A DNA stretch of 63,998 nucleotides, the filler included, from Ionaspis alba (Eukaryota): assembly GCA_964255285.1 (NCBI GenBank). It is 3 parts of 3 records of this genome, joined end to end, with 100 filler letters (N's around TTAATTAATTAA, not from the genome) between each part and the next. Parts side by side here need not be neighbours in the genome. Positions count along the whole stretch, not along the records: positions 46,715 to 63,998 come from CAXUUL010000323.1; 2 more parts are not named here. One strand, given 5' to 3'. Below the pieces are notes generated by a model, which worked only from the letters and a program-made list of their open reading frames with translations, searched no databases and was not told the DNA's origin. Of the stretch, positions 23,277 to 63,998 are shown one piece after another (positions within the stretch are counted from its first letter, which is position 1; every line of letters starts with the position of its first letter). Both the position numbers and the translations under genes were made by a program.

Positions 23277-23376
23277 NNNNNNNNNNNNNNNNNNNNNNNN
23301 NNNNNNNNNNNNNNNNNNNNTTAATTAATTAANNNNNNNNNNNNNNNNNNNNNNNNNNNNNNNNNNNNNNNNNNNN
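23277..23376. other. Artificial contig-joining spacer
   Basis: N44-TTAATTAATTAA-N44, a palindromic linker with stops in all six frames. Confidence 0.97.
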
Positions 23377-36061: not shown

Positions 36062-36161
36062 NNNNNNNNNNNNNNNNNNNNNNNNNNNNNNNNNNNNNNN
36101 NNNNNNNNNNNNNNNNNNNNNNNNNNNNNNNNNNNNNNNNNNNNNNNNNNNNNNNNNNNNN
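36062..36161. other. Scaffold gap (100 N) with a ~55-nt duplicated flank
   Basis: TTATACCCGACGTCTATCCTGGCTATTTGGACAATCTTTTGAGGTACTGGGCTGA is present on both sides. Confidence 0.9.
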
Positions 36162-40688: not shown

Positions 40689-40892
40689 AATCCGAGATTC
40701 CGAAAAAATTTCTAATAAAAGTTTCGAAGACCTGGCACGCTTTGTGGGGAAGGTTTGCCGATCAGCCCCATATGTATGTACGTAAGCTATACTTGAACAT
40801 GTGAAGACTTCATAACACAACTATGGCTGAACACTCTTTCTCAAATCCGAATACTCTACGATTGAACATCCATCTGAAAGAGAAGAAAGATA

Positions 40893-44349: not shown

Positions 44350-46498
44350 TTACACGAGATTATTATTCCAAGCCAACTTCTGCGCACATCGCGTCAACTC
44401 GGATTGCCCGGTAGGAGAATTCAGGTAGTCATCTGCAAGCTGTACTATCTCACCAAGCTTCTGACAATCTGCCAAATCAATCGCACCAAGTCGTTCCGTC
44501 TCCTGTAGACGGGAGTATACGTCTCTGAGACCAGAGAAATACGTCAGGAAGTCGTTGTGCTTAGCCTCAGTGCTCGTCGTGCGGCCTACCAGATGGTTGA
44601 TGAAGTTTTCGAGACCTCCCGTAGGATCAGTTGGATCGCTTTTGCCGGTTCCAATGCTCACAATTGCATCGAATGTTCTGGCTGGGTACTCCTGTATTGC
44701 TTCCCGGACAGCCTCAAGTATCGGGTTGTTGCTCTGCATTCCGCCGTCAAAGTAGCGGCGTCCACAAACGGTAATAGATGGGAAATAGAGAGGAGCAGCT
44801 GAGGTCGCTCTTGACGCTTCCCAAATTGTGAAATCGGCAGCCCTGGTGCCTCTGCTCGGTACATAACTCCTCAAGCGCTCGCACTCGTGTTGCCCTGCAA
44901 CGCAAGCACAAACAAAGCACCGTACATTGCCACCTTGCTCGTCTAGCAGTATTGCGTCTTCTAAGTTGGTCCCAGCCGCTTGCAGTCGGTTTTTCTCCGG
45001 TAAAGAGAGCTCTTGTGACACAACTTTTCTGACAGCCGCCTCCAATCTTTCGCCCGAGAACCAAGGCTTATCCCAATAGGCATCCCAGAGCTGCTTCTTT
45101 GGAAGACTCCATACAGTTTTCTTAAAAATTTCTCGAGATAACTCCTCATAAGCTTTCTTGCAAGCCTTTACGTCCATCCGCAACCGCCCCAACATGATAG
45201 CGAGGAGACCTCCCGTGCTTGTTCCACAAATCATATCAAAATAGTTGCACGGCTTGAGTGCATCAACGTTGTTTGGCGTATCAATTGCACGCACATTCTC
45301 CATCAATTTCTCTAGTACCATGATAGTAAACAAACCTCTTACGCCGCCTCCATCCAAAGAGAGTACTCTGAGACCTCGGGCTGGGTCTTTGGGCCGCTTT
45401 GGAACACTGATTTTCACGCCAGTCCAATCCTCGGCCTTTTGTATGAGCCGACGTATGGAACCAAGAACACGTTGCAGCTGTCCATCTGCAGGACTATTAA
45501 ACTTGGTCAGGCTCGGATGGTCCGCATCAATTGCCCTATTCTCAGCACCGTCGAGGGTAGCTTTTTCTCTTGGAACAACGGTAATTTTCTACTTCGGTCA
45601 GTCTGCAGTCGAAAATTGGTCACCCATTGTACGTACCTGCCAGGCTCCCAAGACCACGGGCCGGGTCTCATAGAAGCAAACTGTGGGAATCTGTTCACCG
45701 CCCAAGAGTTTGAAGTCGTCATTTACCATCGGGATGTTCGCCAGGAAAGTACTTAGAGCTTGCTGTTGGGCTCGAAGGAGAGGTATCCAATTGACAAGTT
45801 TTACCAAGGCCTGCACCTCACTCGTCGCACCGCCCTGCTGAACAGTGCCAAAGAACATCATACCCTTGATATACGAGTGAAAATTGTGAGCTTCCGGTGA
45901 GGAGTTCCGCGAAGCAGAAGACGTGATGAATAGCTGTTTGGCCAGCGTGCCTCCTAGGCTATGTGCTACAATCACCATTGGGACATGTGTGCGCCCATTC
46001 GCCGCTCTGTCATCGATCAAGTCCCAAAGCAGCCCTTCTCCAATGTTGTCTTGTGTACCATTGTGGGTGCAAGAGACGATCCGAGCTGAAGGTGCCACGG
46101 ATGGTAATGCGTCCGCAAGCCAGAAGAAGCCTGTTTCTCTTGCGGTCCATGACTTCTTCCAGTCTCCATTTTCACCATGAATGGCGACAATACTATACAA
46201 TTGTTACTGTCGAGGTTTTGAAGGATATTTTAGAAAGGTCCAGTAAAGGGTGCAGGATGCAGTAAAGACGACCAGACTTGGTTGACGTGATCAAAGAATG
46301 AGTAACCTACTCTAAGCTATACTTATGGTCTCGGGGACTGGCTATGGTGTGGACCTTGATAGTCGAGCCAGCAGGTTCGTCGACGGACAGATCGTACCTG
46401 GTGTCTGTCCGCTCAGCCCTTCCCTTCCGCAGCAATGGTCCGATGGACGACTCCTCCAGGGCAACTTCCACTTCGCGTCTATGATCGGGGTCTTCCAT
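44350..46498 (-). CDS. SesB-like alpha/beta hydrolase fused to a patatin-like phospholipase (~660 aa)
   Basis: Exons 46498-46311, 46192-45637 and 45588-44350 join in frame. Hydrolase: LDIVAIHG, FWLADALP, IVAHSLGG, FFGT, CFYET, DADH..LTKF. Patatin: LSLDGGGVRG, GTSTG, ATSAAPLYF, DGG...NNP. The 5' end lies near the contig edge. Confidence 0.85.
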
Positions 46499-46614: not shown

Positions 46615-46714
46615 NNNNNNNNNNNNNNNNNNNNNNNNNNNNNNNNNNNNNNNNNNNNTTAATTAATTAANNNNNNNNNNNNNNNNNNNNNNNNNNNNNN
46701 NNNNNNNNNNNNNN
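46615..46714. other. Artificial contig-joining spacer
   Basis: N44-TTAATTAATTAA-N44, identical to the spacer at 23277. Confidence 0.97.
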
Positions 46715-48793
46715 TTGTCGCGGGAAGAATATGACACCGCTACGGTTATCATTATTATTGTCAAAGAGATCATCGTCAACTATAAATATAAATGTAGATC
46801 ACCAAATCGCGAAGTCATCTGACACGTCCATAATACTGCGTCATAGTCTTTTTGCGATCTAGAACCGGGAGGGAAATGGATTGGATTTCCTTGAATCACG
46901 ATTAAAGTGCTGACAAGTGATGCAATAGTGGTCGGGATTAGGACGAGGCAAAAGCAGCCGACCGGGAGGCTGGGAAGGAAAAACGGAATTCCGGAGCCAA
47001 CGCACCAGCGATTGGTTGGTATCCACTCTTTTCGCTGCAAAGGATTTGTGGAGAAAGGTCGGCATGTTGGTTCCCTCAGTGGTTTCTGCACAACGAACCC
47101 CTCGGGAAGAGGATTTCGAAGGATTCGTAACAACGTTGAAGTCCTCGCGACGAATCTCTTGCCAGCGCACAAGAGCACCGGCTCATATTGTTGACTAACA
47201 CAAGCGTCAAATTATCGTCAATTTTCTTTGCGACACAGCGCGACGCGACGAGCTAGGATGTGGCACTCCTGATAGGAGATTGGCACGATTGGTACGATTG
47301 ATATTGACTGGCCTTTCCCTGCCGGGCTCGCTTCCCAGGAAATTCAGCAATCACTCAGCCACAGGGGAAAGGCATCTGGAACATCGTTATGATTTAACTG
47401 CCCTGTTCTATAATGCAATCAGTTGACGCGCAAAGGAAGAGCTCTCTCCGCACTCACCGCCTAACAGTAGCAGTCACGTGGACGACCACAGCAGCTGAAA
47501 CCAAGAATAAGGACTCAGTGTAAGTGGCAAGCGTGCGTAAGTGACATTGCCACCCAATTGTTGACAAGGGGCCATCAACAACCACAGGCACTGACTGATC
47601 GGCTGAAAAGAGAAATCTAGATTTCGTGCGTCTGACGTAGTTGCGAGCCTCATAGAGAGAGGCAGAAATGCCTGTTGCCAGGCCAGGGCGCCAATTGGCC
47701 CGGGCCTTCTATTTGCTTTAGCGCCAGGTACGAAATCCAAACCACTGAGGAAGCTCCGAAGTAGGGGGGAAGCTTTAGAGGAAATGGGGAGGCAAATTAA
47801 CGACGTGAGTGGATGATACTGGGGACGACTACGTATTTGGTATTTGTCCCCAGTGAAACAGCGTTCCTACTGGCTGGGACAGTCGAAGGAAGCTGAGGTG
47901 AGGAGGGACGGTTGTGCGAGTACAGTACCAGTCCTGATGGACAAGATTACACGACTGCCAACTTTTTGGAAGCCGGTTCTTTGACGGGTATTCGCCTCTG
48001 AGGACCCAAAGGTTGCGGTGCGGGTGGGTGGGTGATGTGCCTTGAGCTTGGCTTTTGCAGCTAGCAAGGTCGGCGATCTCCCCTGAAATCAGCGAGCATC
48101 GTGATTGGATGAATGGAATTGGTGATGAAGGTTTGTGACCAGGGATGATGGAGAATGGATGCACTCTTGCCTCGGAATCGTGCAATTTTACACGTCCGCT
48201 TTCTGGGGCACATCCTGCAACGAGTATTCATTGGAAGGACGCGCAACGGGGATTGGTTACGTACGAGCCACTTTGTTTTGCGTATCCTTCGGCCCTGCTG
48301 CCCATCATCGCATCGCTAAGGTTAGGTATCCCAGCCATGCAGGAGCAAGTCGCGGCAGCAGAAGAAGAGTGGGTACTTTGTCGCCTTCCCTTTAGCTTCA
48401 TCGAATTTCAAGCTGGTCTGTGGCTGCTACTTCTGCTCCCAGCAGATTCATAGCTTCTTTCCCTCTCATTAAATGCCCCGTAACCGGTAATTTGAACCCA
48501 ATTGCCCTAACGCGCCTGCTCTCTTAGCTTAGCATCACACATTCTAACTTCCGTGCTACTACTAAATCAATCCATCACCTCCCATCTCTTCCCGCTCTTT
48601 TTTCTCTTCTCTTCCTCTCTTGTTCCTCCACGCATTCAAGTCTCCATCCAAGTTCCATCAACTTCTTCCTCATCCATCCTCATCAGATCACTGTATCTTC
48701 CTCCGCATCCATCTAATCCTTCTTGGAACTTCCATCCACGCGTCAGAAGCATCTTCACGTTTCCCCATCCACAACTAAAACAACAGGATCAAG

Positions 48794-49937
48794 ATGAAGT
48801 CCTTCACTGTTGCCGCCGCGCTCTTCGCCGGCTTCACCATTGCCCAGGATTTGAGCGCCCTGAACAATCTCCCAGCTTGCGGTGTATGTCTTCCCTTCAC
48901 CCCACTGCCTCGAGCTCACTCGAAAGCGATTGAGGTTACACGAGAAATCTGCCACTGACATCAACACATAGAAAATCTGTATCACCAACATGCTTGGTCA
49001 AGCCGCCGCTCTCGGTTGCCCGTCTCAGACCGATGTCAACTGCCTGTGTAACAAGCAGAACTTCCGATACGGTGTTCGCGACTGTATCAATCAGGCTTGC
49101 CCTGCCAATGACGTCGCAACCGTCACCACATTCGGTAACAGCATTTGCGCCAGTAAGTTCTTCGCGTCAAGCTCAACCAATTGGTACTTGTAACAGGGAC
49201 TGACCCTTACCTCAGACGCTGGTAAAGCTTCCACCAGTGTCGCCACCGTCACTGCCACCGAGACCGTTGGCACAAGTACCGTTGTCGTGAGCACCGGAAC
49301 CGACTCCGCTGGTGCTACTTTCACCACCACTCTTGCCGGTGGAGCTGGCTCAGGCTCAAGCTCGGGCAGCAGCAGCGGAAACGGGACCGCCGCTCCAGTC
49401 CTCGTCACTATCACTTCCACTGACAGCGCCGGCTCGGCCATGACCACAACTGCTACCGTCTCTGGATCCGGAACCTCACCTCTTGGTGGCGGTGCTGTCT
49501 TTACTACCACTGACGCCTCGGGCATGACCACCATTGTTACCCAAACCGGTGGTACTGGTGGCAACTCCACTGCGACTGGCGCCGGTGCAGGAGGTGTCAT
49601 CGTCGTTACCACCAACGCGTCTGGTGTTACTATTACCACCACCGAGGCTACCGCCACCGTCCCAGCGACTGTCCTCACAACCACCAACTCTGCTGGTTCA
49701 GCGATCACCACTACCGAGGCCCCATCCGTAAGTCGCACCGTTAGCATATGATTAACTCATTTGCATTCGCTAATTCTCGCTCAGTCATCTGCCTCCGGCT
49801 CAGCATCGTCCGCCGCCGGCTCTTCAAGCTCAGCAGCCAAATCCTCAGCTCCTGCATCATCATCAGCTGCTGCTGCCCCACTCCTCACGGGATCCACAGT
49901 CGGTGGTCTCGCCGGTCTGCTCCTCGCTCTCTTGTAA
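48794..49937 (+). CDS. CFEM-domain, Ser/Thr-rich GPI-anchored cell-surface protein
   Basis: Signal peptide MKSFTVAAALFAGFTIA; 8-Cys CFEM (LPACG/KICI...GCPSQTDVNCLC...VRDCINQAC...SICA); Thr/Gly-rich stalk; hydrophobic C-terminus (VGGLAGLLLALL*). Three introns. Confidence 0.92.
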
Positions 49938-50171
49938 ATTCCTCCTCGCGCACTTTGATTGATCGCGTCAAACCGGCGAAAAAGAAAAAGAGGACAGGAG
50001 CTTGGATCGGATGACTTGCCTGGTGGCATTTGTTAATAACACGAGGGAGCTGGAGAAAGAAGCGGGCATAGCTTTCGCAGCGGGTTTACTTCTTTTCGCG
50101 CGCTGGATTGATGGTTGAGATACCCTTCCTTTCTTCCTAACAGCACCCTTACTTTTGTGCATAAACCGCTT

Positions 50172-50201
50172 TTCTTCTTCTTCTTCTTCCTACTACTACT
50201 A
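50172..50201 (+). repeat. Compound microsatellite (TTC)n(CTA)n in the CFEM gene 3' region
   Basis: ttcttcttcttcttcttcctactactact. Confidence 0.6.
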
Positions 50202-51530
50202 CTCTTCTGATTCATGTCGCTCATGCTCTTGTTGATGCCCGTAAAGGAAAGCAAATACCCATTGTTTCTGATTCGTTCCTTTGCCAATATGTGTACGCGA
50301 GGGGTGATGACGGTGGATGGATGTAATTCTGGGGATTGGGGTAGCTAGGGGGGCGGTAGAGTGGAGAGTGACAATCGAATGAGATACCTAACTGCTCTGT
50401 GCAACCTATGATTCCTGTGACTTGTTGCCAGAATATGATTATGAGCATTTGTAATTTCTACCTACGTGTCGGACAGAAACTTTTGCCTCTGTCAATGCTA
50501 CTCATGGTCGTCAAGTCGAACAACGACTGCTTTGACCTCGTACCTGTGTAAGGGGAGTGGCACACCGTTGACAATAAATTTGGCGCACGGGAAAGGATAT
50601 ATACCTTAAAATACGCGACGGTGAACAGTTTCGAGACCTCAAGGACAGCTGGATGTTCTGCTAAAGTTTCGAATAAATTAGGCACCTTAGTGAGCATATC
50701 CATTGAATAACTCATTGCGCGTGCCGATTTCTACATCAAAGCTGGCATACTTACGTTGCCCTGTCGCAGCCCCCTGGGTAGCTCTGGATTTGGCCCCCTG
50801 CTGTAGCAGTGAGACGACAGTCGGTAAGAATAAGGCCCGTTACAATGCATTTGACAGTCTACCAGATAGCATACGGGGCAATTAAAGTCAAACCTGGCAT
50901 TGATTATCCATGGCGCTGTGGCATAAGGCAACGCTTTTCAAAACATTAAAACAGAACCAATTCCCACCAGGCTATCACGAGCACTGCGGGCAATTCCTTC
51001 TCCCCGAACGTAGGATGATGAAACGTCTTTAAATTTCTTGCCAATTTTCACTATTTGCTTCTGAAGCTCTGAGGTGGTCCGCATGAACTCCTCTTCACAC
51101 ACCTGCAAGCCACTCTCTGGGTGGATTTCAACGAAAGCGTGCCGCCAGATGGCCTAGCCCACCGGATCTTTGACCTTCACGGTCACATGAAAGCCACCAG
51201 TGTCCTCCTCTTTCCTTCGTACTCCTCCTCTTCCTCCTCCGCTTTCTCCTCACTGCCTACAGGATCCTAGCGCCTTTTCTTTCCCCTCTTCCACCGCCTC
51301 CCCAATTCCCCATGTAGTGATGCAAGAAGGCACTCACCACCAGAGAGCATGCTTGAGAACCCCTTACTACCCAGCCCTCGTTCTCTGGAGGACGGGTTGC
51401 CTGATATTCAGGAGCGAATCGGTACCGCAAAACAGACTTACGTGATAAGCTATAGGTAGAATCACCAGCGCATAAGTCACCCAGACGTCGCCAAGCGCCC
51501 AGGTGGTCTGCCACGAACAAACTGCTGTCC

Positions 51531-54255
51531 TCAGGATATGTCGATGAAGTCATATTTGCTTCTCGCTGTTTTCACTAGTCGATGTTCCGGGACAAGGCAG
51601 TGAAGTCCTCTGTCAACGCAACCTGGACAGAGATCGTAATCGCCAGACTTGCAAAGGTTGCAGTGAAAATGGATTTCTGTTGTTACGTCACCACATTCAT
51701 CGCAATACACAGAATGGTCCAAGTCAATGTCTGAGCTGATGTATGGTATTAGTACCTGCTGGATCTCCATTGGGGTACAATCAGGCTGTGGTGTGGAGCA
51801 AAGTATGCGAGCCAGCTCGCTTGCTGAGACTCTGGACCGAGGATCTGGAAGGCGGCAATCTCTGATGATGTCGCAAAGGTAAGCAGGAACGTTATCATGG
51901 CATTTGGGGAGCTCCACTGGGTTTGCGTGAGTCGCTGTACAGGTAGAACGTGGCAAGTGCGTACAAGCGGATTTTGCGCAGAAATGGCCCATATTTTTGG
52001 GTATATGTTCCATGAGGAGCCATAATACCAAGCCCAACTGGAAGATGTCGGTTTGAAAGTTCAAATTAGTTCCTACAGCTGAGCCTGAGCGGTCGTTCTC
52101 ATGCGTGGTCCGTAATTCTGGAGGTGCCAGTCCCACGTAGTCTCGAAGATGTGCTTCAGAGCGTTGGAGCCGGTGGAACACAGCTGTTCCATCTGCTCTG
52201 ATACCCACAGAATTCAAATTAAATGTGCCTGCAACCAGTGCTTGACTGTGTATCTCAATGATAGCTTGGATCAGCTGTCGTGCCCAAAGTTCTCGGATCG
52301 ACCAGGGAATGGTCTCGGATCTGGAGTTCGCGAGTCCAAGGAGAAATTCCATGGATGTCAACATCGGCAGCTCTTGCAAATAACTTCGTAAGTGTTGTCT
52401 AGTATCGTCGAGGACAATACCTTTAAATCCCGACACATTCGCACAGCGACGCAGCGAGATTTGATGTTTGATCTCGTCAAGATAGTCTAGAAAGGCATCG
52501 TTACCCTGCCTCTTGCCACTGGCGAACAAAACTTTTCTCTCAACAAAAGCCTGAGAGTCAATGTAGACTTTGTAAGAGGTCGAGTTGATGCGTGAGTACG
52601 TAATGACATTGGATTCGATGTATCGTTTGCAACAAACGCTATCGAGATATTGCAAGAATTCCCTCTCATCTGACTTAGACATCTCTGATTCGTCTTCAAT
52701 CACCTCTACCCTTGATGACTCGGCAGTGATCTGGCCGCTTTCACCCACTTTTAAATCAAGAGATATTTGTGTTATTGATGAATAGAACTCGATGAAAGGT
52801 AACAGCGTTCGGAGAAGACTATGAACTGCCGGGGGAAGAGTTTTGGGAGCACCCCACAAATGATTATCAGAGGGTGCCACCTGTAAGGTGTCTATATGTT
52901 GACGTTCGCCATGGAATGCAGCAAACACAACAATTCTCTGCCAACGTCGAGCCGTTTCTGCATAATTGAGAAAATAGCGCAATTTCCGTTGATCATCCGT
53001 CGAGGGTAATGTGGCCACTGCGAATACCTCCTTACTGATAGACAGTTGTGGAACGTACTGCTCGGGGTAGAATGAAGGAAGTAATTCAAATCGATATTCA
53101 GGCGACCCGAAGAAGTTTACTTGAAGTTCATCGATTGACGAGCCGGAATCATGCGAGGAGAATCTGGAAACGCAATCGAAGAAAATCTCGATGACAGCTA
53201 AATCGCTCTCATCGAGACTATTCCGCCTGGAATCCAGGTCTTCGAATTTCGAGGTTCTCGTCTTGCCGCTTGGAGCTCCTGTCGTCGTTCTTTGCTTGAA
53301 TTCCTTGAATCGCGCTGTCGAAGACTTGAGTTGCTGTATCTGGATACCTGCTTTACCCAGGTCCTGATAAACTTGAGCAACTTTGCGGTGCAGCAAGCTA
53401 TCTGCTGACATGAGAGCAGATTGAGTGCATTGAACGATCGCCCTTAGAGAGTCCGTGATCTGGTTCATTGATGTATACGCAGCCTCTATGTTATCGACAG
53501 CCTTTCCCAGGTCCGAGTGATCACATAGTCTTGGAGTTGAGAGTTCCAATGGAGATGTCCCGCGTGTGACGTGAGCTAAAGGCGAGATAGCTATGTTGGN
53601 NNNNNNNNNNNNNNNNNNNNNNNNNNNNNNNNNNNNNNNNNNNNNNNNNNNNNNNNNNNNNNNNNNNNNNNNNNNNNNNNNNNNNNNNNNNNNNNNNNNT
53701 TGGGTCGGTTCTCTTCCGCAAGAGTCAGAACCCGCAAGCTGGTCATCCTGGCAGAGTCAGCCCGATGTTACAAATAAGCATAAGATTTTTTGCCTACATG
53801 GTTATGACATTCAAAGCAACACTAATCGTGTGCTTCTCGACTTCCAGAGTTTGTTGCAACCTGCTGATCTCATTCTTCGATATCAAGCTCCATTTTACGC
53901 TCACAATGCTTGATCGAATATGGTGAGACTCAAGGTACGAAGTGCGCAGCCTTTCCAGCTTCACACTGAGCTGACCCAGAATCGCTTTGCAATTATTGAG
54001 AGGTTTGGTCAAATTTGCCACTGTCTCCGTCAAGGTCTTGTTACTGCTGATAGTAGTTTGTACATCCTGATCTTTCATGACAAGGTCCAGAGAGAAAACT
54101 ACGTCGTGGAAAGCGTACACTTCCTTACAGATGGCTTTGATGTTGCCAGGCGCACCTCGAATATCGGCTACAAGGTCAAGCAATGCTTTTGACGACTGGA
54201 CTGCTTGCATAGTAAACGCAAGCACACCTAAAACGAGGCTGACAGGATCTGCCAT
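51531..54255 (-). CDS. HeLo-like N-terminal domain + coiled coil + pseudokinase + ZZ zinc finger (~856 aa)
   Basis: Exon 1 (54255-53798) MADPVSLVLGVLAF...IRGAPGNIKAICKEV...L..PLNNC...KW is the fungal STAND/HeLo-like N-terminus. Intron 53748-53797 has a GCTGAC branch and CAG acceptor. The frame is open on both sides of the N-gap into ORF 51531..53549. Kinase-fold motifs IPWSIRELWARQLIQAIIEIHS, APPEL and TDIFQLGLVLW; ZZ finger CDEC..FHCNLC..DYDLCPGC....H....H. Confidence 0.8.
53600..53699. other. Scaffold gap (100 N) inside the HeLo-like/pseudokinase gene
   Basis: The flanks share TTGG. Collapsing this 4-nt overlap gives an in-frame ...EENRPNIAISP... on the minus strand. Confidence 0.8.
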
Positions 54256-55480
54256 GATGACTTTCTCAGTGATGTGAGTGAATCAACTCGTTCGAATTCG
54301 CCAGAGGAGCTTCGATGGCTGTCTGTGAACCATTCCTCTGGTCATTACTCCGTGACATCGCTACCATCATTTCGATCAGTTTCGCTCGAAGTCAAAGAGT
54401 TGACGGTCAAGTTCAGAAGCCATAATCGAGAATTCTAGATGTCCAACAGGATTTGTAATTGGGTGGCAATCTCACGAGGCTATAGCGGGAAGGGACAAAG
54501 CAGGGCAGCCACTTAGCATCATTTGGAGCTCTAAGTCGATACCTCCTCCAGTGCAGCGACTAAGTAGTAGTAACGACCAATAGAATGTCCCTCCCTCTGA
54601 AGTGACCGAGCATCCAATACCGCGCACGCCGTTCCAGGTCCATGGTAAATCTGCCTTTCCTTCCTCGGTATCTGGCGGTCTTCCTGACCGGGACTTTTCT
54701 GCCGGCTGTAGCGCGCATTAATCCCACTAATCTAGCTTAGGGCAAGGCATACCTGTTCCGCTTTTCCCCAATTCCTTCATTCTCTTCACAACAACCATCG
54801 TTGCGCTGATCTTCAGCTGCAACGTCCAAAATGCTTCTCTATCATTAGCCTGACAGCTCTCAACAGCTCCAGGAAAAAGTTTTTCATGGCCTGTCAAGCG
54901 TATCTGCATGAAGATGTATCGACAGCCCAAGCGCCATTCGGCTGAGGTGGACTATTCGCTACGCTTCCCGTCGCCAACTACTCGTCCGTAACGATCCCCC
55001 TTCAACGATAGCTCTCGGCCGATATTGCTATCAAGCCCGGCCCTTGACAGCAGCAGCTAGGCTCCAAAACAGCGATGAGACTAACTCGTGACGTCTGCCA
55101 GGTAACGCGTGTTGGATCCGTGCTTAAACTGCGGCTGTGCCTGCTCTGTGTCGCGTGAGCTATCTAGAGGCTTGAGGCAGATCTATTTTCAAAGAGGAGA
55201 GCTCGGGGTAGGAGGACGCGTTGCTTAGGTCTGGATTTGCACTTGGAAGCAGCGTTCGCCCTGCTTTTCCTGATGGGGTTGAGACAGTGAGAGGGGGTTG
55301 CGAGACAATGAGTGTACCGATGTTGACCAGCCGTTCAGCCAATGATAGGAAGAAGAGGAGAGGCTCTTTGGGATAGAGGTGCCTGGATTGTACAAAAGAC
55401 GAGGCTTTCCTTCTTGATGAACGATTTCACTTTCTTGTTCCTGAGACTCTGTATAGAGAAGATCTCCATCGTTTGAGACG

Positions 55481-56836
55481 ATGACCCTCTCTCCATCTCG
55501 CTTCACTCTGCTCCAGCTTTCTTTCCTATCAGTGGTTCTACTCATCTCGCTCCTCTCTCCCGCTTCAGCGTTCACGCTCGATACCTGCCCCACCGCTCCC
55601 TCTTCTAACCTTCTCACAAACTCCTCCCTCATCCCGAACACAGACCTCTCCCTCTCGGAACTCTTATCCCTCCCTATTCATTCCCTCAATGGCACCACCT
55701 ATATTCGCCCCGACACCGGTGGTACTCTTCTCCCCTACATCTACACCGCCCTGATCTTCCTGGTCCATATCCCCGTCGTCGTTGTCCGCGTCGTCCGGTG
55801 GGAGAAAGTCCAGACATGGTGCCTTGCAGCAACGGTCCTTACGCTTGCTATTACCGTTCAGGGCTACATATCCACGGGGCTGGCGGCAGAGAAGATTTTG
55901 ACATGGACGCCGGTGTTGCTGGTCGTGGACGCGGGGAGTATGGCACAGATCGCGTTTCTGATTGTGGAGGACCATCATTTTTTCCGCCGATTCAGAGGAA
56001 CGGACAAGACACCAACAAGTGAAGCCGAGAAGGGTGGCCTGGTAGAAGAAGTTCCGCCATCCTTCGACGACGTTTACAACAGTAAGCTTCTACTCTCCCC
56101 TTCAACCCGTCAAACAGCACTGATCATCCCAGGCCCCACAAGATCGTCCGACTTTACGCACATCCTCGCCATCCCCTTCCCCTCCATCAATTCCCATCCT
56201 CCGTCCACCACCAACCTTCCCCTCCACAAAGACCCAATCCTCTACACCCTCCTCCTATCCAGCGCTCTCCTCCTCACAACCCTCTCCCTCCAACTCTTAG
56301 GCCTCACCCACGCCGTCTCTGGCTCTCGCGCCCCCACCCCACACGTCTCCTGGTGCAGCCCCGTTATGAACCCTTTTGGTCTTGCCGTTCTCACCTCCTC
56401 CTGCGAAGCCTACCCCATCCAGCAATCGTACGTCAAAGGCGTGGGCTGTATCTCGCTTCTAGGAGCTCGTCAGGAATCCTGGTTGCGCGCTACGGTGGGG
56501 ATTGTGAGTTTGAGCTTGGTGCTTGAGGCGGTCGATATTCTGGTGTTAGTTTTTGTGCATGGGAAGACGAGGTGGAGGGGTTTGAAGATGAGTAGGCCGT
56601 GGGGGAGTATGATTTTGGGACTTGTGGTTTTGGGGTACGTGTTGTTGGAGGGGGTTAGACAAGCGGGGAGTTTGCCCGAGGGGGTCGGAAGTGTCCTCTG
56701 GGTTGTGCTGGAGTTGGGGGATGTTGTTGTTTGGAAGGTTGTGGCGGGGGGATTGAGGGGGTCGATTATTGGGTGGTATGATGGGGTTTTTAGTGGGTGG
56801 GGACAGGGCTATTTTGGGCAGGCTACTCTGGCTTGA
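55481..56836 (+). CDS. Uncharacterised signal-peptide, multi-pass membrane protein
   Basis: Hydrophobic N-terminus ending ASA, about 6 hydrophobic segments, and Cys in the loops (SWCSP, SCEAY, GVGCI). Probable in-frame 51-nt intron at 56082-56132. Confidence 0.75.
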   Translation: MTLSPSRFTLLQLSFLSVVLLISLLSPASAFTLDTCPTAPSSNLLTNSSLIPNTDLSLSELLSLPIHSLNGTTYIRPDTGGTLLPYIYTALIFLVHIPVVVVRVVRWEKVQTWCLAATVLTLAITVQGYISTGLAAEKILTWTPVLLVVDAGSMAQIAFLIVEDHHFFRRFRGTDKTPTSEAEKGGLVEEVPPSFDDVYNSKLLLSPSTRQTALIIPGPTRSSDFTHILAIPFPSINSHPPSTTNLPLHKDPILYTLLLSSALLLTTLSLQLLGLTHAVSGSRAPTPHVSWCSPVMNPFGLAVLTSSCEAYPIQQSYVKGVGCISLLGARQESWLRATVGIVSLSLVLEAVDILVLVFVHGKTRWRGLKMSRPWGSMILGLVVLGYVLLEGVRQAGSLPEGVGSVLWVVLELGDVVVWKVVAGGLRGSIIGWYDGVFSGWGQGYFGQATLA

Positions 56837-57817
56837 GGGACGTGAGGTAGAGGCAAGGCGTTGGATGATCGTTATTGTGGGGTTGTGAAGTGGTACGGGG
56901 AATGAGTAAGGATGTCTATTTTGAGTGACATTTTTGACATATTTAACGCTGCTTAAAGGAATATCTGATGGCTAAAGTCGATGCTGATCGAATGTACCTA
57001 CCACTCCATTGTGCTGTATGTATGTATAGGTTGGTGACTCATGCTATTTACAGATCTACCATGCCAGAAGAGGACTTGTAGACACGCTAAGTAGATTGGA
57101 AAAGACAGAAGAGTGTTGAGATCGGGCTTATCTTTAAGGAAGTTGTGCTAGAGCTGCGAGAAATTCTGTTATGGCTCTTTGACAAGAACGACCTGTCCAA
57201 AAGCAGTGCCTTTTGGACTCTATTACAAGCCTACCGAAGCGTGGAACGAGATGACTCTCGGAATTTCTCGACAACACGATTTCGCTTAGCGTTCGAAGTG
57301 AACCTTGAGCCATTTGTTTTGCCAAGGTTTGTTGGCCATCTCAGTGTCAGCTTCACTGTCACATCATTACTCTCCTCTTGTCTCGTCACAAAACAGGGCA
57401 GCAGTGACTGATATTCCAACAAGTGAGAGTGAGGGTATTTGCTCTGTCTCTAGATAAGGAGCCGCCAAATAGGTGACTTTGAGTGTTGTTGCAAGAGCGT
57501 CACGCGTTTCGTGGTCAGATTCATCGAGAGGTCCAACATCAGATCTCTTGACGACAACTCTGTCCTCGTTCACGTTCGTTCCGCGGACCCACCGTACCGC
57601 TAAGATCCAGTGACAGGTTTTGGAATTTCTCAGAAGCAATTGCGGAAGAACTATTCAGTCGTGCTGGTACAGATCAGACGGCTCACTGAGTAGCGGTGCG
57701 ACCACGGATAACTCCAGCTTCGTTAAGCTCTGTCAGCTCCACCATTCAAACTGGTCTCTCAAGGTGCAAACCAATAGACATCGATAGTGTCTACAACGTA
57801 AAGACTGATAGTCGTCG

Positions 57818-59081
57818 ATGGCTATCCTTGAAGATGTGGAAGTATTTATCAAGTCAACAGCGACCGGAGAAAGGCTCGTCGAGTACGATAATCCGGATCC
57901 AGAAGATGAGGCCGGAAGCCTTCAGGTCGAGAAGTTCGTGGAGGCCCAGTCCGAGGCGGAATTTCAGGTTGTCGTGAACCTCAAGGCAGGTTTTGATTAT
58001 CATGGTGCAGATGGTGTACGAGTTCGTCTAGTTCTTGACGGTGGTGCAGTCCGTCGTCACTGGTACAAGTGTAAATCCGAGCTCGTCCCCATTAACGACA
58101 AGCTTCTCGAGGACAAGTCCTTCTCGTTTGCGACAGTGAGTAGCAAACGCGGAGAAGACTGGATCAGAGTTGCTTTTTCCTTTGGAAAGGTTGACGTTGG
58201 TGAATACTGAACATGACCCCATCGAAACTTATGGCTGAACGATCGTGTGTGCAGACGAGGACCTCCACCTGGACCACGAGAGTCTCAAGAAACAGCTCAA
58301 TGAGGTTGGCAGTATACTTGTTATAGTGGAACGAGTGATGTCCTAGCTGCTTGCAGAGCCACAAGCGTATGGACCTGCAAACTTACATCCAGTCGGACAG
58401 CTTGATAAAAAGCTGCTCTTGAAGAACGTCAGCCATACCATCAGGTATGTCTTGACCACCTATTCATTTGAACTTATAAGTTTCCTGAGATTGATCCAAG
58501 GGTTGGAACCGAGACAAAGATCTCGGCACCGAGACCCTCCACAACCAAAGAACGCCCAATAGGAGGAATCCATGGAGAACAATCACATTTTATTTTCCGC
58601 TACCGATCTCGCGGTAAGAGAAATATTGAACTGAACTCTGATGTGTTTGACCGTCACTAGTCGCACTGCAAAATATTGGCTGCATTTCCACTTCCCCCGA
58701 ACCAGTCACTCTCAGCGAGCGCCTACCACAGGAGCTATCCGATTGGCAGAAAGTGGAAGAGATCATTAGACTTCGTGTACTAATGCCAGCCTCCATGTAT
58801 TCATACTGAGATACTGATCTCGAGAAACGCAGGCAGCGAACGAAGCACAGCGAGAGGAGATCAAGCAGCTTACGCAGGCAAACCAGACTCTAGCACAGGA
58901 GGCAGACGAGGCCAAAGACATTAGGAAAAGGATGACCACTCTGCAGTCAGCATTAGCTGACCTGGGAACTGTCGCCACACCACCGTCCACAGCAAGGGTA
59001 AAGAGGGAGAGAAGTGACGAGGATAGTACGTCTGCTCCAGCTAAGAAGCAAGCCGGGCCAGCGTATGTCGTTCTGGATTGA
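57818..59081 (+). CDS. Conserved fungal hypothetical protein (DUF7918-like) with C-terminal coiled coil
   Basis: MAILEDVEVFI..GERLVEYD..KFVEAQSEAEFQV..LDG..FSFGKV, VGSILVIVER and FYFRYRSR/ALQNIGCI. About four GT-AG introns; ends ...YVVLD*. Confidence 0.65.
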
Positions 59082-59376
59082 TGGACAAGCATTGGGCAAA
59101 AGGAGCTCGCTACTTCACAAGAGAGCTTATAAGACCGAGAGGTTGAGGACACATGAAACCTGTGGATGTATTGTGATTGGCATGGACCAGCTGCAGATTT
59201 GCGAGAAAGCTCAGGTTGGTTTATGAGAGTCCTGCAACTGGATATTCATGGATGAGACGGATCAATGTTGGAACCTTTGAGAGTCCTGAGTATTTCCTAT
59301 GTCCTTTCCGATCATTGAGCTTCATGTTATCTGAATTGCCTTTTGTTGATCCGGAAACGAAGACCAGCCACGATCC

Positions 59377-59900
59377 TTATGTCACCGTAAAGTCGGCCTC
59401 CCTTCCCTGATCTTTTGCTCTGCCATCTCCTTGCTCATTACCCTCCTCGTCACTATCGTCCTTGAATCCGACCTCCAGTTCCCGACTTAGCCTCCTAGCT
59501 TCCCCCTCATTCGAGTTCCTGCGGCTCAACCGATCCTCGTCGAGACCAAAACCTTCTTCCAGTTCCTCGTCGCCGAACAGGGAGTCGCCACTACTTTGAC
59601 TATTCCGCCTCCACCTACTTCCACTGCTGAAGGATGACAGAGCGTCCAGCACTCGACTGCGTGTCCGGCTAATGAAGCTTTGTTGTTCTGTAGAGGTTGA
59701 AGATGAAGGTAACGATATTGGGATATAATTGCCGTACCGATTTCGGCGGCGATAGATAGGAAGGATGACGTAGACGGAGAGCAGGTAGATTCCCAAAGCG
59801 ATTAATGGAGGGATGAAGATGGTCTGATCGGAGTCAGTTGCTTCGTGTTACGCAGTCTTGGATCTGGGAATTTGACCTTCACAATGCTGGAGCCCGCCAT
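59377..59900 (-). CDS. Small single-pass membrane protein
   Basis: MAGSSIVK/TIFIPPLIALGIYLLSVYVILPIYRRR across one intron; cytoplasmic tail with RRLSRELEVGFKDDSDEE. Confidence 0.75.
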
Positions 59901-60803
59901 CACCGAGTCTGGTGTGGCAGGCGGAGACTTTTGGAAGAGCGGCGGAGGTATTGACGTAGTCGGGAGGTTGCCTGGTATTGATCGTGGGAAATTGAAGCGT
60001 GGTACTTCTAAGGCTGGAAGGTCATGTAGTATTCTCGGGCTTATCATTACGGCTCAGCTATCGGCCGGCATATGAAATGTCATCGTTCGTATAGAACAGG
60101 GCAAAGGCAAGAGAGGGTGTGATCAAGCCGCCCCTCCCTTATAGTGAATTTATGGAAGATAGTTGGTATGTATTTTATTCAATGCATCGACTATCGGGCG
60201 GAGAGAGTTCCGAACAGAGACTGTTTGATACGTCCATCCTAACTTCGGACCTGTCTACAGGTCAGCCGTGTCAGTCGCGCTAGGAACAGGACAGTCTAGT
60301 ACGGAGCCCGGGCGGACAGGGGCATCGCCGCATTCAGAAAGTACCAAGCGTGACCCGCCCTGAAACCTCAGAACAACAGAAGTCGGAACAGAGGAAAACG
60401 GCAAGGAAGAGCCAACACCGTTTTGCAAAGAGAGGGGAACGGAGTGTGCTGGAAGTTGTTTTTGCTTTCTACTTCAGATTAATATACTACCGCTACTATA
60501 CTCAACCTTCGCGCCATCCTTCCACCTACCACTTTTCGCGACTTCGCATTTTCCGTCATGTGAGTGTCCACATCCGGCGCGCCTTACCCAGTCCAATTCC
60601 GAGGCCACAGTTTGAGATCCTCAAAGCTCCGATGACGGTTGATGCGACTCCAACAATTGGTCGAGATAGTCACGATAGGCGGATCTCATCCCGATTACCA
60701 TTCTTCACCTTTCGCAAGCGTGAAGAACCGACAATAAGAAGAGGAGGGGATTATTCACAACTTGCACCTCTGGCTACGTGAGGCAGGGCCTCCCGTGCTG
60801 ATC

Positions 60804-63800
60804 ATGATGCCTTCATCGAACTCGTCGAATGATCTCAAATCACGGCAGTCCTCCGGTGGAAAATCGTTTTTCAGCAGACTGCACAGAGACAAATCAGCAG
60901 AATCAAGAGCTTTCGAAAATAGTGGATTATACCCCGAACCACATAGTGGCAGCAGCAGTATCAATGGCTCAACATCTTCACGACATTCCCACAAACCTTC
61001 GGTCTCTTTGGATATGGATAGCGGATTGGATGGTCACAATCTACACATGACAGCCGGTGTCATCACATCGATACCATACGATAGTCTTTCCGCGAACAGC
61101 AAGACCCCTATACCAGTCGACTACCTTCCCAGAAATGATCAGGTACCTGCGCGAAGGGAACCGTTGCCACATCACTTGAACAAGGGAGGAGGGGACTACC
61201 ACCAATATCCCGCTTGGGATCCGGAAAGAGCGCCAAGCAATGGTTCATCACATCCTACAGGTCCTAGGCCTCCACCGCACGGCTCTCAATCCACAGTCAC
61301 CTCGGTTTCGTCACGAAATAAACAGCCACAAAATACCAGGCCTGGCACGGCGGTGAGCCTTCAAAATGGCTCGCATGAGGGAGTCGATTCCTACTCTACT
61401 GTCGGCTCTTCATCGAACGGACGAAAATCCTTCGACCAGGCCAGCATCTACTCTTCCGTCTCCTCTGCCACACGAGGCTCCAGCATTTTCTCCTCCGATA
61501 ACTCCTCTCGAACCGCAGTACCATCCTACGTCCAAGACAACACCCTTCGACCGACTTCCTCCCATTCCCCATCTCGCCAATCCCAAATGTCCCAAACAGC
61601 ATGGCATCCGCAACAACCACCATCATTCAACTCCGGCCCCTCCTTTAACCCCGAAGGCTTCACTCTCCATCCACCAAATGACGAAAAAGTAATAGAACAG
61701 CTGTTCATCGCCTTAATGCACAAACGTGGATGGCAAAATCTCCCAGATCAGGCCAGGCGGCAGATGATGGCTTATCCGCCCGCAAAGAAATGGACGCTGG
61801 TGCATCAGGACAAGTTGACGGAGTGGCAGGGGGAGCAGAAGAGAAAACAGCATGCGAGGCAAACCCTCCATGGTGCTGACGGTGCTATGGGTGTGTTGGG
61901 TAGAGCAGACGAGGAGGGCAGCCCTGAGTGGTTTGTCAGAAGAATCCTGGATGATACTATCAATGCGAAGCAGCTGCAGAGCTTGAGTGTTAGTCTAAGA
62001 ACTCAGCCTATCAGGTAAGCCGAAATGCCGAGGTAATCCTCATGTTCTTGCTTACATCGAACAGCTGGGTCAAGTCCTTTGTGGAAGCTCAAGGTCAAGT
62101 AGCTTTGACGAATGTCCTAGCCAAAATCAACCGGCGTCAGGCCCAAGGTCCAGCTCCTTCTTCTGGCACCACCAGCGATAAGGATCTGGATCGAGAGTAC
62201 GACATCGTAAAATGTCTTAAGGCACTGATGAACAACAAGTATGGCGCCGACGATGCTCTTGGTCACCAACAGGTTATCGTTTCTTTGGCGACGTCCCTTA
62301 TCTCTCCACGATTGACTACACGAAAACTCGTGAGCGAAGTCCTTACATTCTTATGCCACTGGGGAGAAGGCGAGGGGCATCTGAAGGTGCTCCAAGCTAT
62401 GGACCATGTCAAGCATCAGCAGGGCGAGAACGGTCGATTTGATGCTTGGATGAGGATAGTTGAGGTCACTATCGGTGGGAGAGGGAAGATGGGAAGTCTG
62501 GTTGGTGCTAGTGAAGAGGTCCGAAGTGGAGGCATTGGCATGGAGAACCTCCTGATGGAATATGCTGTGGCTTCCCTATTTCTGCTCAACATGATCATCG
62601 ATGCGCCGGAACACGACCTCCAGCTACGATGTCATATTCGAGCACAATTCACATCATGCGGTATCAAGCGAATCCTAACCAAGATGGAGGGCTTCCAATA
62701 CGATGTCATCGATAAGCAGGTGGAGAGGTATCGGGAGAACGAAGCCATCGACTACGAAGACCTTCTGCAGCGGGAGAATAGCAGTATCAAGGATAGCATA
62801 GGAAGCGATGTCAAGGATATGCATGACCCAACACAGATCGTGGATGCTATCATGATGAAGGTTCAGGGTAGTCGTGCGCAGGACTATTTCCTTTCCGCAA
62901 TGCAGCATATGCTACTTATTCGGGACAATGATGGAGAAGATAGGCTACGCATGTTCCAGCTCGTCGATGCCATGCTCAGCTATGTTGCGATGGATAGAAG
63001 GCTTCCAGATATGGATCTCAAGCAAAGTCTCAACTTCTCTGTCCAGAGTCTCCTGGACAGGCTGCATACAGACTCCGAAGCTCGTCAGGCTCTCGATGAA
63101 GCGACGGAATCCAGGCAGATTGCCGATTCGGCAATGGCTGAGAGGGATGAGATGAAGTCGCAGGTGGAACTTGGTGCTAATGGTCTTGTTGCAAAGTTGC
63201 AGAAACAAGTACAGGAGCAGGCTGCCATAATTGATCTCCAGGGACGGCAGAATGAGGCTCTCAAAGCGGAGCTGGCAGAACTGCAGCGACTACGTGCTCA
63301 GGATTTACAGCGCAACGAGTTGGAGACTCGAGAGCTGTATCTCATGTTACGTGATGCACAAGATGTTGCAGCATCTTCAGCCAACAGAAGTGGTAAAGAC
63401 CAATTCTCGACTTCTGATCCTAAGCAGATGCAGGGCATTTTGGACCGAGAAAAGCTCATGGAGCGACTGGAAATTCAACTCGAAAGATCCAAGACTCAGT
63501 GCAAGTTGGAAGGCAAAGTCTGGCAGCAAGCTGGTCCTTCAGATAGACTACGGGAATTGCGGGAGAAGATGGATGGTGAATTGGGTCCACAAGATTCTCT
63601 TCCGTCCCACTTAAAGCAATTTAACAATGCCATGGTAACTTCCGGACCTCCCAGACGAAAGCCTGTCAACGATTCCCGGCGGCTTGCCCTTGGAACTTTC
63701 TCTGGCGCTCCAGGCATAGACGAGTTGGTCGACAGTGAGAGCGGGGACGCCGTTATCTATGAGAAACCACGGCTCGTCGAGATGAAGAGACCGAAAATGG

Positions 63801-63998
63801 ATCCAAAGCAAGCGACCGGACTCCTAGGTGAGATCGCCTCAAAGGTCCGCCGCTTTGATGCTAGCGAAGACGAAGACGAAGGCATCACCACGGGTCCTTC
63901 TCATCCAAGCCTCGAGTCTGATTCGCCGAAAACCCCATCGGACGAAGGTGCTCCCAAGCAGTCAAGTGGTTTTACGGGGCCTCCACCGCCCCCACCGC
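60804..63998 (+). CDS. sepA: Formin SepA/Bni1, 5' part (GBD, FH3, coiled coil, start of FH1); runs off the window
   Basis: KRGWQNLPDQARRQMMAYPPAKKWTLVHQD, GSPEWFV, SLSVSLRTQPI/SWVKSFVEAQGQ (intron 62015-62064), EYDIVKCLKALMNNKYGA, RKLVSEVLTFLC and LRCHIRAQF. The poly-Pro FH1 begins at the window end. Confidence 0.96.

Follow-up and report, generated by a model that had tools for sequence, protein, structure and literature searches.

A fungal gene from Ionaspis alba that joins a HeLo-like domain to a pseudokinase and a ZZ finger in an order of parts recalling MLKL

Introduction

HeLo-like domains are treated in the literature as membrane-targeting death effectors that are relatives of MLKL's four-helix bundle (4HB). 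In vertebrate MLKL itself, a helical-bundle N-terminal domain of the HeLo/4HB superfamily is followed by helical connectors and then by a non-catalytic kinase fold, and the protein has a RIPK3-type activator. Plant MLKLs (Arabidopsis MLKL1–3 and wheat Pm13) likewise combine a HeLo/4HB domain with a kinase-like domain in immunity (10.1101/681015; PMC10951266). In fungi, HeLo-like domains occur in HELL effectors (HELLP) and at the N-termini of NOD-like receptors (NLRs), for which HeLo-like, SesA, HET and PNP_UDP are listed as N-terminal effector domains (PMC9815663). Here we describe a gene on the minus strand at positions 51531–54255 of a 63,998-nucleotide (nt) stretch of Ionaspis alba DNA (assembly GCA_964255285.1; hereafter the window), the predicted product of which carries, in order, a HeLo-like domain, a helical linker, a conserved middle domain, a pseudokinase and a C-terminal ZZ-type zinc finger.

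Whether fungi possess a true MLKL-style executioner, that is, a killer bundle restrained by a pseudokinase, as opposed to HeLo proteins controlled by amyloids or NLRs, is a question raised without detail in a 2025 review, which mentions proteins combining a HeLo-like domain with a kinase or pseudokinase in one unreferenced sentence (PMC12881547). The gene described here is a complete, testable example of such a fungal architecture. In a literature search that left most subscription journals outside its reach, we found no account of the family described here, nor of the ZZ finger, middle domain or N-domain exchange that characterise it, and an earlier mention of the family may exist.

Results

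Gene structure

The gene lies on the contig that occupies positions 46715–63998 of the window (17,284 nt), and is read from an ATG at 54255 to a stop codon at 51531–51533; the coordinates and strand assigned by a first-pass annotation of the window, made from the sequence, were correct. We denote the product of the first open reading frame (ORF; 153 codons) as P0001, the 688-residue C-terminal part as P0002 and the existing gene call, of 645 residues, as P0003; residue numbers given below for the linker, middle domain, pseudokinase and ZZ finger are those of P0002. The gene is made up as follows:

53798–54255, minus strand: exon 1, coding for residues 1–152 and, with its last two bases, the start of codon 153; HeLo-like N-domain
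53748–53797, minus strand: intron of 50 nt, GTAGGC...CAG (GT..AG)
51531–53747, minus strand: exon 2, stop codon included, coding for the linker, middle domain, pseudokinase and ZZ finger
53596–53699, no strand: spurious scaffold gap, consisting of 4 duplicated letters and 100 N (53600–53699)

The frame of P0001 begins MADPVSLVLGVLAF and, when unspliced, ends after its 153 codons in a TAG located exactly at the GTAGGC donor site. Removal of the 50-nt intron shifts reading into the frame MTSLRVLTLAEENRP, which differs from that of the long ORF upstream of the gap in the six-frame list. This start of exon 2 agrees at 12 of 14 positions with residues 154–167 of P0014, an 868-residue homologue with a spliced gene model, which served as reference for the exon comparison. 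Splicing at 53748–53797 is predicted from the sequence together with the P0014 model. Identity to P0014 is 71% for P0001 (against P0014 residues 1–153) and 72% for residues 4–688 of P0002 (against P0014 residues 184–867). In the stretch between, the length of which varies among relatives, the gene product is 12 residues shorter than P0014; this stretch is predicted by AlphaFold2 (AF2) to be disordered, with a predicted local distance difference test score (pLDDT) of 26–37.

The first-pass annotation had proposed one protein of about 856 residues, assembled from two ORFs across the 50-nt intron and across a gap that could be closed in frame, and both joints are borne out. Contigs of two public sequencing runs were compared with positions 53000–54300; a contig from run X1 (6681 nt, depth 107) joins 53595 directly to 53700 (its record positions 3629 and 3630), with no extra letter between 53000–53595 and 53700–54300 and with four letters at the joint that fit both sides. 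As 0.98 of the sampled words occur in X1, this run may derive from the sample behind the window itself, in which case the contig represents a second assembly and not independent DNA. The run of 100 N is a scaffolding artefact with a 4-nt overlap, and is absent from the real DNA. With the joint made, the frame is continuous and the total length is 153 + 15 + 688 = 856 residues. Seven relatives of 777–884 residues hold both parts in one protein, five of them, among those scanned, lying above the PF17111 cut-off. Since the gap is closed in frame by the contig, and the splice frame agrees with P0014, we take this to be one continuous gene, and hold with high confidence that the architecture as a whole is that of a single two-exon gene for an 856-residue cytosolic protein.

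HeLo-like N-terminal domain

P0001 matches Pfam PF17111 with 46 bits (cut-off 27.2; E 5.3e-12) over residues 2–153, corresponding to positions 1–138 of the 209 in the profile. By this Pfam match the N-domain belongs to the HeLo-like family, as had been suggested from its N-terminal pattern. As read from the sequence, MADP comes first and leads into a hydrophobic helix; M1, A2, P4, G10 and K23 do not vary among the 12 relatives aligned. For residues 1–165 of P0014, the ESM Atlas places PF17111 and SesA clusters nearest by features (score 0.96), and by structure returns PF17111-type clusters together with the N-termini of NACHT/ankyrin proteins, i.e. NLR N-termini, at template modelling (TM) scores of 0.65–0.76. 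A phmmer search of the Protein Data Bank (PDB) with P0001 gave no 4HB or HeLo chain, its two matches both being to beta-hexosaminidase at E about 1, and a homologue search with P0001 for longer proteins gave five matches, all from the same family. The probable link between this domain and the 4HB of MLKL runs through its membership of PF17111 and published work on that family, in which PF17111 is named Helo_like_N, the MLKL executioner domain is reported to align almost perfectly with the PF17111 profile match, and AlphaFold models of Helo_like_N-type domains score TM 0.51–0.64 against MLKL (PMC9815663).

Pseudokinase

The C-terminal part contains a protein-kinase fold that lacks the residues expected of an active enzyme:

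51780–52625, minus strand: pseudokinase, P0002 residues ~325–606, of tyrosine kinase/tyrosine kinase-like (TK/TKL-like) fold without Gly-rich loop, HRD Asp or DFG Asp

Searched alone, P0002 matches Pfam Pkinase at E 0.18 and in the C-lobe only, and phmmer against the PDB returns 15 matches, ZZ domains only (best 0.031). Kinases appear in the PDB search only with the family profile, which matches LIMK1 at 2.8e-8, RIPK1 at 6.5e-6 and the MLKL pseudokinase structures 6vbz and 6vc0 at 2.5e-7 and 2e-6, respectively. The AF2 model of P0002, built from a 39-sequence alignment (mean pLDDT 75.5; predicted TM score 0.71), gave at least 500 Foldseek matches at E ≤ 1e-3, those shown all being kinases; CSK, NEK7, LIMK1/2, RIPK4, MLKL, RIPK1, BRAF and CTR1 are among the matches listed, with MLKL (E 1e-9; TMt 0.73–0.74) amid near-equal kinase matches. 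Structural comparison by VIA gave Z ≥ 8 for 1000 of 1000 chains. FGFR2 aligned over 263 residues of the model segment 308–606 with Z 21.5 and a root-mean-square deviation (rmsd) of 3.1, and KIT, RIPK2, RIPK1 and JAK3 lay within 1 Z of it; MLKL was not in the best 50 of the 1000 rows. On the modelled structure, the assignment to the protein-kinase fold, of TK/TKL-like type, is certain.

In an alignment to LIMK1, the HRD position is occupied by A456-G457-T458, the catalytic-loop Asn position by S463 and the DFG position by R476-L477-Q478; P0002 contains no GxGxxG, the pattern of the Gly-rich loop. The motifs quoted in the first-pass annotation, VAGTFNLNS, APPE and TDIFQLG, are present (at 455, 491 and 516, respectively), and its reading of a kinase fold stripped of catalytic residues agrees with the model and the alignment. 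The 'HRL' that it placed at the DFG position is one residue out of register, though its conclusion that no Asp is present there stands.

A survey of homologues for loss of the HRD and DFG Asp, which had been proposed as a check, bears out the same picture throughout the family. It was made on 167 aligned members, comprising all stored proteins of at least 450 residues out of 208; the 41 left out were shorter fragments together with P0001, P0003 and P0072. The HRD-Asp column contains Asp in 4 of the 167 and Glu in 2, and the DFG-Asp column Asp in 5 and Glu in 3. None of the 167 has Asp in both columns, and P0138 alone pairs a Glu with an Asp. In a pattern search of the kinase region, H-x-D occurred four times and D-[FLY]-G three times, and those inspected lie at other offsets. 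The column of the beta3 lysine holds Lys in 121 and Arg in 26 of the 167, and the presumed alphaC position Asp in 79 and Glu in 42. As judged from these alignments, the family as a whole is a pseudokinase family, and the catalytic loss is not recent decay in this one gene.

ZZ finger

The C-terminus is formed by a zinc finger of ZZ type:

51582–51716, minus strand: ZZ-type zinc finger, P0002 residues 628–672, with all Cys/His ligands

The cross-brace ligands C632, C635, C646, C649, C657, C660 and C667 are invariant, and H672 near-invariant, in the 39 sequences; across the wider alignment each of the eight is kept in 142–145 of about 145 non-gap rows. Pfam ZZ (PF00569) is matched by 23 of the 39 relatives at E ≤ 0.01, and the family profile picks up, with E-values of 2.6e-5 to 3e-4, ZZ domains from S. 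pombe P35G2.11c, p62 and CBP. The early assignment of a ZZ finger holds on these grounds (ligands kept; family profile matching solved ZZ domains), although the protein's own Pfam score is below the cut-off.

Three acidic residues of the finger, D633, D653 and D655, align with D129, D147 and D149 of p62, and the DYDLC stretch is identical in the two proteins. Conservation of the trio over the same rows (about 145) amounts to 109 for D633, 96 for D653 (with Asn in a further 30) and 138 for D655. In p62, these three residues bind the alpha-amino group and the side chain of an N-terminal arginine, and each is required (PMC6197226). The specificity of p62 is not to be assumed here, because p62 N132 and R139 correspond to G636 and H643.

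Family size and exchange of N-terminal domains

A word-indexed search found 69 relatives at E ≤ 1e-3. The relatives that carry names are six proteins of metagenome-assembled genomes (MAGs) from fungi that form lichens (Chaenotheca, Peltula, Pyrenula, Kuettlingeria and Caloplaca, and Letrouitia from the search with P0001 for longer proteins), and they alone indicate the taxonomic range of the family. An exhaustive profile search of 1.84 billion cluster representatives gave 2598 matches at E ≤ 1e-3, of which 1382 reach E ≤ 1e-10 and 550 reach E ≤ 1e-30; ordinary kinases will be present among the weaker ones. Each of the best 150 representatives reaches 265 bits or more, and many span only profile positions ~190–705, i.e. 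the core of the middle domain, the kinase and the ZZ finger.

This C-terminal module (C-module) is found behind more than one type of N-domain. Among the 39 aligned relatives, Pfam recognises PF17111 in five, SesA in two and HET in one; among those 44 of the best 150 representatives in which some 90 or more residues precede the profile match, it recognises PF17111 in four, HET in three and SesA in two. A laxer scan of 13 proteins (11 of the 35 N-extended representatives lacking a recognised N-terminal family, together with P0044 and P0064) yielded sub-threshold matches to PF17111 in three, to HET in one and to PNP_UDP_1 in one. The last of these, at residues 44–144 of P0134 (995 residues), ahead of the shared C-module, has an E-value of 0.005 and 16.7 bits against a cut-off of 25.1; if real, it would add a fourth NLR-type effector domain to the C-module. 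The presence of HET or SesA in place of the HeLo-like domain in relatives is context that had been overlooked in the earlier reading of the sequence.

The N-domain counts are lower bounds, as gene callers blind to introns drop the N-terminal exon. P0003 itself has only 645 residues, and about twenty close relatives of 700–716 residues (among P0004–P0022) start just after the intron; in P0006 and P0007 the intron is read through in frame, adding about 17 residues. Because metagenome gene callers cut the family at the intron in this way, database architectures understate its N-domains. A conserved C-module to which death or immune effectors are attached interchangeably corresponds to the way in which receptors or regulators are built.

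A separate observation concerns P0039 (938 residues), in which a P-loop-like GMGGMGK stretch lies at residues ~200–215, between SesA and the shared C-module, not embedded in any NB-ARC or NACHT domain. The stretch could be left over from an NLR that gave the N-domain, or an artefact of the gene model.

Linker, middle domain and Cys3-His cluster

Three further features of the C-terminal part are:

53280–53516, minus strand: three-helix 'brace-like' linker, P0002 residues 28–63, 67–82 and 84–106; pLDDT 56–78
52638–53210, minus strand: middle domain, P0002 residues ~130–320, with low-confidence helices followed by a beta-rich core (191–301)
51927–51980, minus strand: C540-x4-C545-x7-C553-x3-H557 cluster in the kinase C-lobe, candidate structural zinc site

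The helical linker anticipated between the N-domain and the kinase is thus recovered as three helices in the AF2 model of P0002, and is followed by a disordered segment (residues 107–129). It is also present in relatives with other N-domains, namely P0038 (HET) and P0039 (SesA).

The middle domain, which the earlier reading of the sequence had overlooked, contains five residues that are invariant in 39 of 39 sequences (D141, S144, P255, E305 and L315) and ten that are kept in at least 90% (F139, C142, E171, F176, P178, E179, Y181, Y212, R217 and W219). Its beta-rich core is modelled with strands at 191–198, 205–213, 219–230 and 276–284, and pLDDT is 78–91 for residues 190–330 in the whole model; folded alone (P0002 125–330), the domain reaches a weaker pLDDT of 64.5. 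Foldseek with the domain alone gave nothing in the PDB at E ≤ 1e-3, the best match being CCR4-CAF1 (0.029), and EEP-type nucleases (TDP2, nocturnin and DNase I) gave E-values of 0.07–0.25 with TM below 0.2. A wide VIA search over 48,161 chains returned none with Z ≥ 5; the best match was DUF1488 (2gpi; Z 4.0, rmsd 4.2, 81 residues aligned). Pfam contains no family for it. The middle domain appears to be a conserved domain of ~190 residues without a recognisable fold; the model is of low confidence, so that a new fold is not implied.

The Cys3-His cluster, likewise overlooked in the earlier reading, sits between the TDIFQLG helix and the last helices of the C-lobe. C540, C545, C553 and H557 are invariant in 39 of 39 sequences, and are kept in 150, 148, 141 and 148, respectively, of the 167 aligned members, the remainder being mostly gaps. 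This pattern suggests a structural zinc site.

Surroundings of the gene in the window

The window consists of concatenated contigs, the linkers between which (N44-TTAATTAATTAA-N44, at 23277–23376 and 46615–46714) carry stops in all six frames. Plain runs of 100 N at 1562–1661 and 36062–36161 are scaffold gaps, and may be spurious like the one at 53600. The ORFs read on the 17,284-nt contig, not all of which were scanned with Pfam, included no recognisable NLR or kinase gene, and tblastn found no paralogue of the gene within the window. A Thr/Ser/Gly-rich low-complexity ORF of 185 residues (49194–49751, plus strand), 1.8 kb from the 3′ end of the gene, looks cell-wall or mucin-type. Two ORFs at 39000–40820 (minus strand) and 61994–63997 (plus strand) look like housekeeping genes by eye, one with DEAD-box helicase motifs and one a long coiled coil running off the end of the window.

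At 44350–46203 (minus strand), two adjoining ORFs resemble one gene. The downstream ORF is a patatin-like phospholipase (Pfam Patatin, 2.5e-26); the upstream one looks alpha/beta-hydrolase-like, with a GxSxG-type motif by eye and no Pfam match. Patatin is also among the listed effector domains of fungal NLRs. We considered this gene as a neighbour of the one described here and rejected it, as it sits on another contig of the window.

Discussion

Comparison with known systems

Among the closest parallels to the gene product is vertebrate MLKL, with which it shares a putative helical-bundle N-domain (HeLo/4HB superfamily), helical connectors and a non-catalytic kinase fold, in the same order. 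It differs from MLKL by the ~190 conserved residues of the middle domain, the Cys3-His cluster in the C-lobe and the C-terminal ZZ finger; moreover, whereas MLKL has its RIPK3-type activator, no kinase gene was recognised among the ORFs read here (not all Pfam-scanned). The label of an MLKL-like protein, which the first-pass annotation had applied, is apt for the order of the parts, but does not appear to extend to the kinase part in any specific sense. Since LIMK1 outscores MLKL with the family profile, and MLKL falls outside the best 50 VIA matches, the sequence and model comparisons do not support common descent of the whole architecture with MLKL, and we do not file the protein as a member of the MLKL family. 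Plant MLKLs provide a precedent for a HeLo/4HB plus kinase-like architecture outside animals; they appear to differ in that their abstracts mention neither a ZZ finger nor a middle domain (10.1101/681015; PMC10951266), the fungal family described here having, in addition, exchangeable N-domains.

Within fungi, the N-domain falls in the same PF17111 as those of HELL effectors (HELLP) and the HeLo-like N-termini of NLRs. Proteins of the HELLP/HET-S type carry a C-terminal amyloid motif paired with an adjacent NLR gene, where the protein described here ends in a ZZ finger (no search for such a motif was made) and so is probably not an amyloid-controlled effector of that type. The C-module resembles fungal NLRs in that one C-terminal module is combined with HeLo-like, SesA, HET and perhaps PNP_UDP N-domains; in NLRs, however, that module consists of a nucleotide-binding oligomerisation domain (NOD) and repeats, in the place of which the pseudokinase and ZZ finger stand here. 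Pfam detects no NACHT or NB-ARC plus repeats on P0001 and P0002 at E ≤ 1. Lacking a NOD domain, the protein does not count as an NLR, and nor was an NLR recognised among the ORFs read on the contig (not all Pfam-scanned); the first-pass annotation had suggested a protein working without an NLR or amyloid trigger. Activation by an NLR-templated amyloid or by NOD oligomerisation would not apply as such.

With p62/SQSTM1 and Nbr1-type ZZ fingers, the ZZ finger shares the cross-brace Cys/His pattern, the DYDLC stretch and the Asp trio. The differences from p62 lie in the two positions noted above (N132/R139 there, G636/H643 here) and in the lack of PB1, LIR and UBA domains.

A possible mechanism

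If MLKL, and the HeLo/HELL effectors presented in PMC12881547, are taken as models, the protein could act as follows. The middle domain, pseudokinase and ZZ finger would keep the HeLo-like domain inactive and serve as the sensing or switching part. A signal acting on this C-terminal module would release the HeLo-like domain, which, once freed, would oligomerise and insert its hydrophobic N-terminal helix into the membrane; the outcome would be membrane permeabilisation and cell death, as in MLKL. Candidate triggers are a ligand in the acidic pocket of the ZZ finger (the equivalent pocket of p62 binds free N-termini of proteins), binding or phosphorylation of the pseudokinase by a partner, and oligomerisation. 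A docking prediction of P0001 with P0002 scored 0.00 in both runs; performed without controls or family alignments, it is uninformative either way.

We regard such an MLKL-like executioner mechanism as plausible, and hold it tentatively, with somewhat less than even confidence. Several points weigh against it. The mechanism is read from the architecture, which is its sole basis, and the four-helix bundle of the N-domain is itself taken from Pfam membership and the literature. The present Pfam name of PF17111 is PigL_N, after a pigment-cluster protein, and its members need not all kill. The pseudokinase does not appear to be specifically MLKL-like, as LIMK1 outscores MLKL and the leaders in VIA are FGFR2, KIT and RIPK2, and its likeness to MLKL may be convergent. 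The ZZ finger of this protein matches Pfam at E 0.0053 and 17.0 bits, below the cut-off of 21.4, and its ligand specificity, if it has any, probably differs from that of p62. Finally, 35 of the 44 N-extended representatives have no N-terminal Pfam family at E ≤ 1e-4. A role in regulated cell death is nonetheless favoured, mainly because the C-module joins exchangeable death and immune effectors.

A broader and rather unlikely version would make the C-module a non-NLR class of fungal immune or death receptor, in which the ZZ finger would sense free N-termini and the pseudokinase would relay the release of the N-terminal effector. The sensed N-termini might then be, for example, ends exposed by a foreign protease or by arginylation, and the effectors would be HeLo-like, HET, SesA and perhaps PNP_UDP.

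Alternative explanations

The same parts could instead form a non-lethal scaffold or adaptor, in which the ZZ finger and pseudokinase would bind cargo or partners and the N-domain would only tether the protein, with neither pore nor death. The ZZ finger indeed finds its best matches in autophagy receptors (p62, and the ZZ of S. pombe P35G2.11c in complex with cargo enzymes), ZZ fingers being found in the autophagy receptors p62 and Nbr1, and the pigment-cluster name now carried by PF17111 points the same way. However, the C-module is joined in relatives to HET and SesA, which are known from fungal incompatibility and as NLR effectors, and not from autophagy (PMC9815663; PMC12881547), and Pfam finds no PB1, LIR or UBA-type domain; we consider a scaffold fairly unlikely. 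If the effector is lethal, its trigger might also be a polymorphic partner protein of another conspecific strain, in place of a cue from a pathogen or of phosphorylation, which would make the gene an allorecognition (heterokaryon-incompatibility) determinant. The set of N-domains (HET, HeLo-like and SesA) is that of het and NLR loci, and the family is large and divergent, with its 550 clusters at E ≤ 1e-30. Against this, close relatives (65–83% identity) resemble well-conserved full-length orthologues and not hypervariable alleles, and no partner gene was recognised among the ORFs read on the 17,284-nt contig (not all Pfam-scanned), so that a role in allorecognition seems distinctly unlikely.

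Two further alternatives concern the parts themselves. WNK-type kinases are exceptions in which catalytic residues have moved elsewhere, and an atypical active kinase of this kind, signalling by phosphorylation, would fit the retention of Lys or Arg in the beta3 column (121 and 26 of 167) and of an acidic residue at the presumed alphaC position (Asp 79, Glu 42); as this protein and almost every one of the 167 relatives lack the Gly-rich loop, the HRD Asp, the catalytic-loop Asn and the DFG Asp, we judge it very improbable. Almost no weight attaches to an annotation artefact that fuses two unrelated neighbouring genes, one for a small HeLo-like protein and one for a pseudokinase-ZZ protein. Gene callers do split the gene, as P0003 and the twenty or so relatives starting after the intron illustrate, but the frame is continuous across a canonical 50-nt intron and the contig-closed gap, and the 15 residues joining both parts are conserved in that frame. 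Relatives hold both parts in one ORF or gene model, and the C-terminal part has no conserved start of its own, other N-domains being attached at the same junction in relatives.

Significance

Set beside these alternatives, the MLKL-like executioner reading would give the question of a pseudokinase-restrained killer bundle in fungi a concrete case. The gene presents an MLKL-like architecture built, as it appears from sequence and model, on a pseudokinase-ZZ platform, within a large and uncharacterised fungal family. The C-module is a widespread platform, with 550 clusters at the strictest profile threshold, that is combined with several death and immune effectors, a hallmark of a receptor or regulator module. 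If it is true that the ZZ finger senses, the family would tie the recognition of protein N-termini to regulated cell death.

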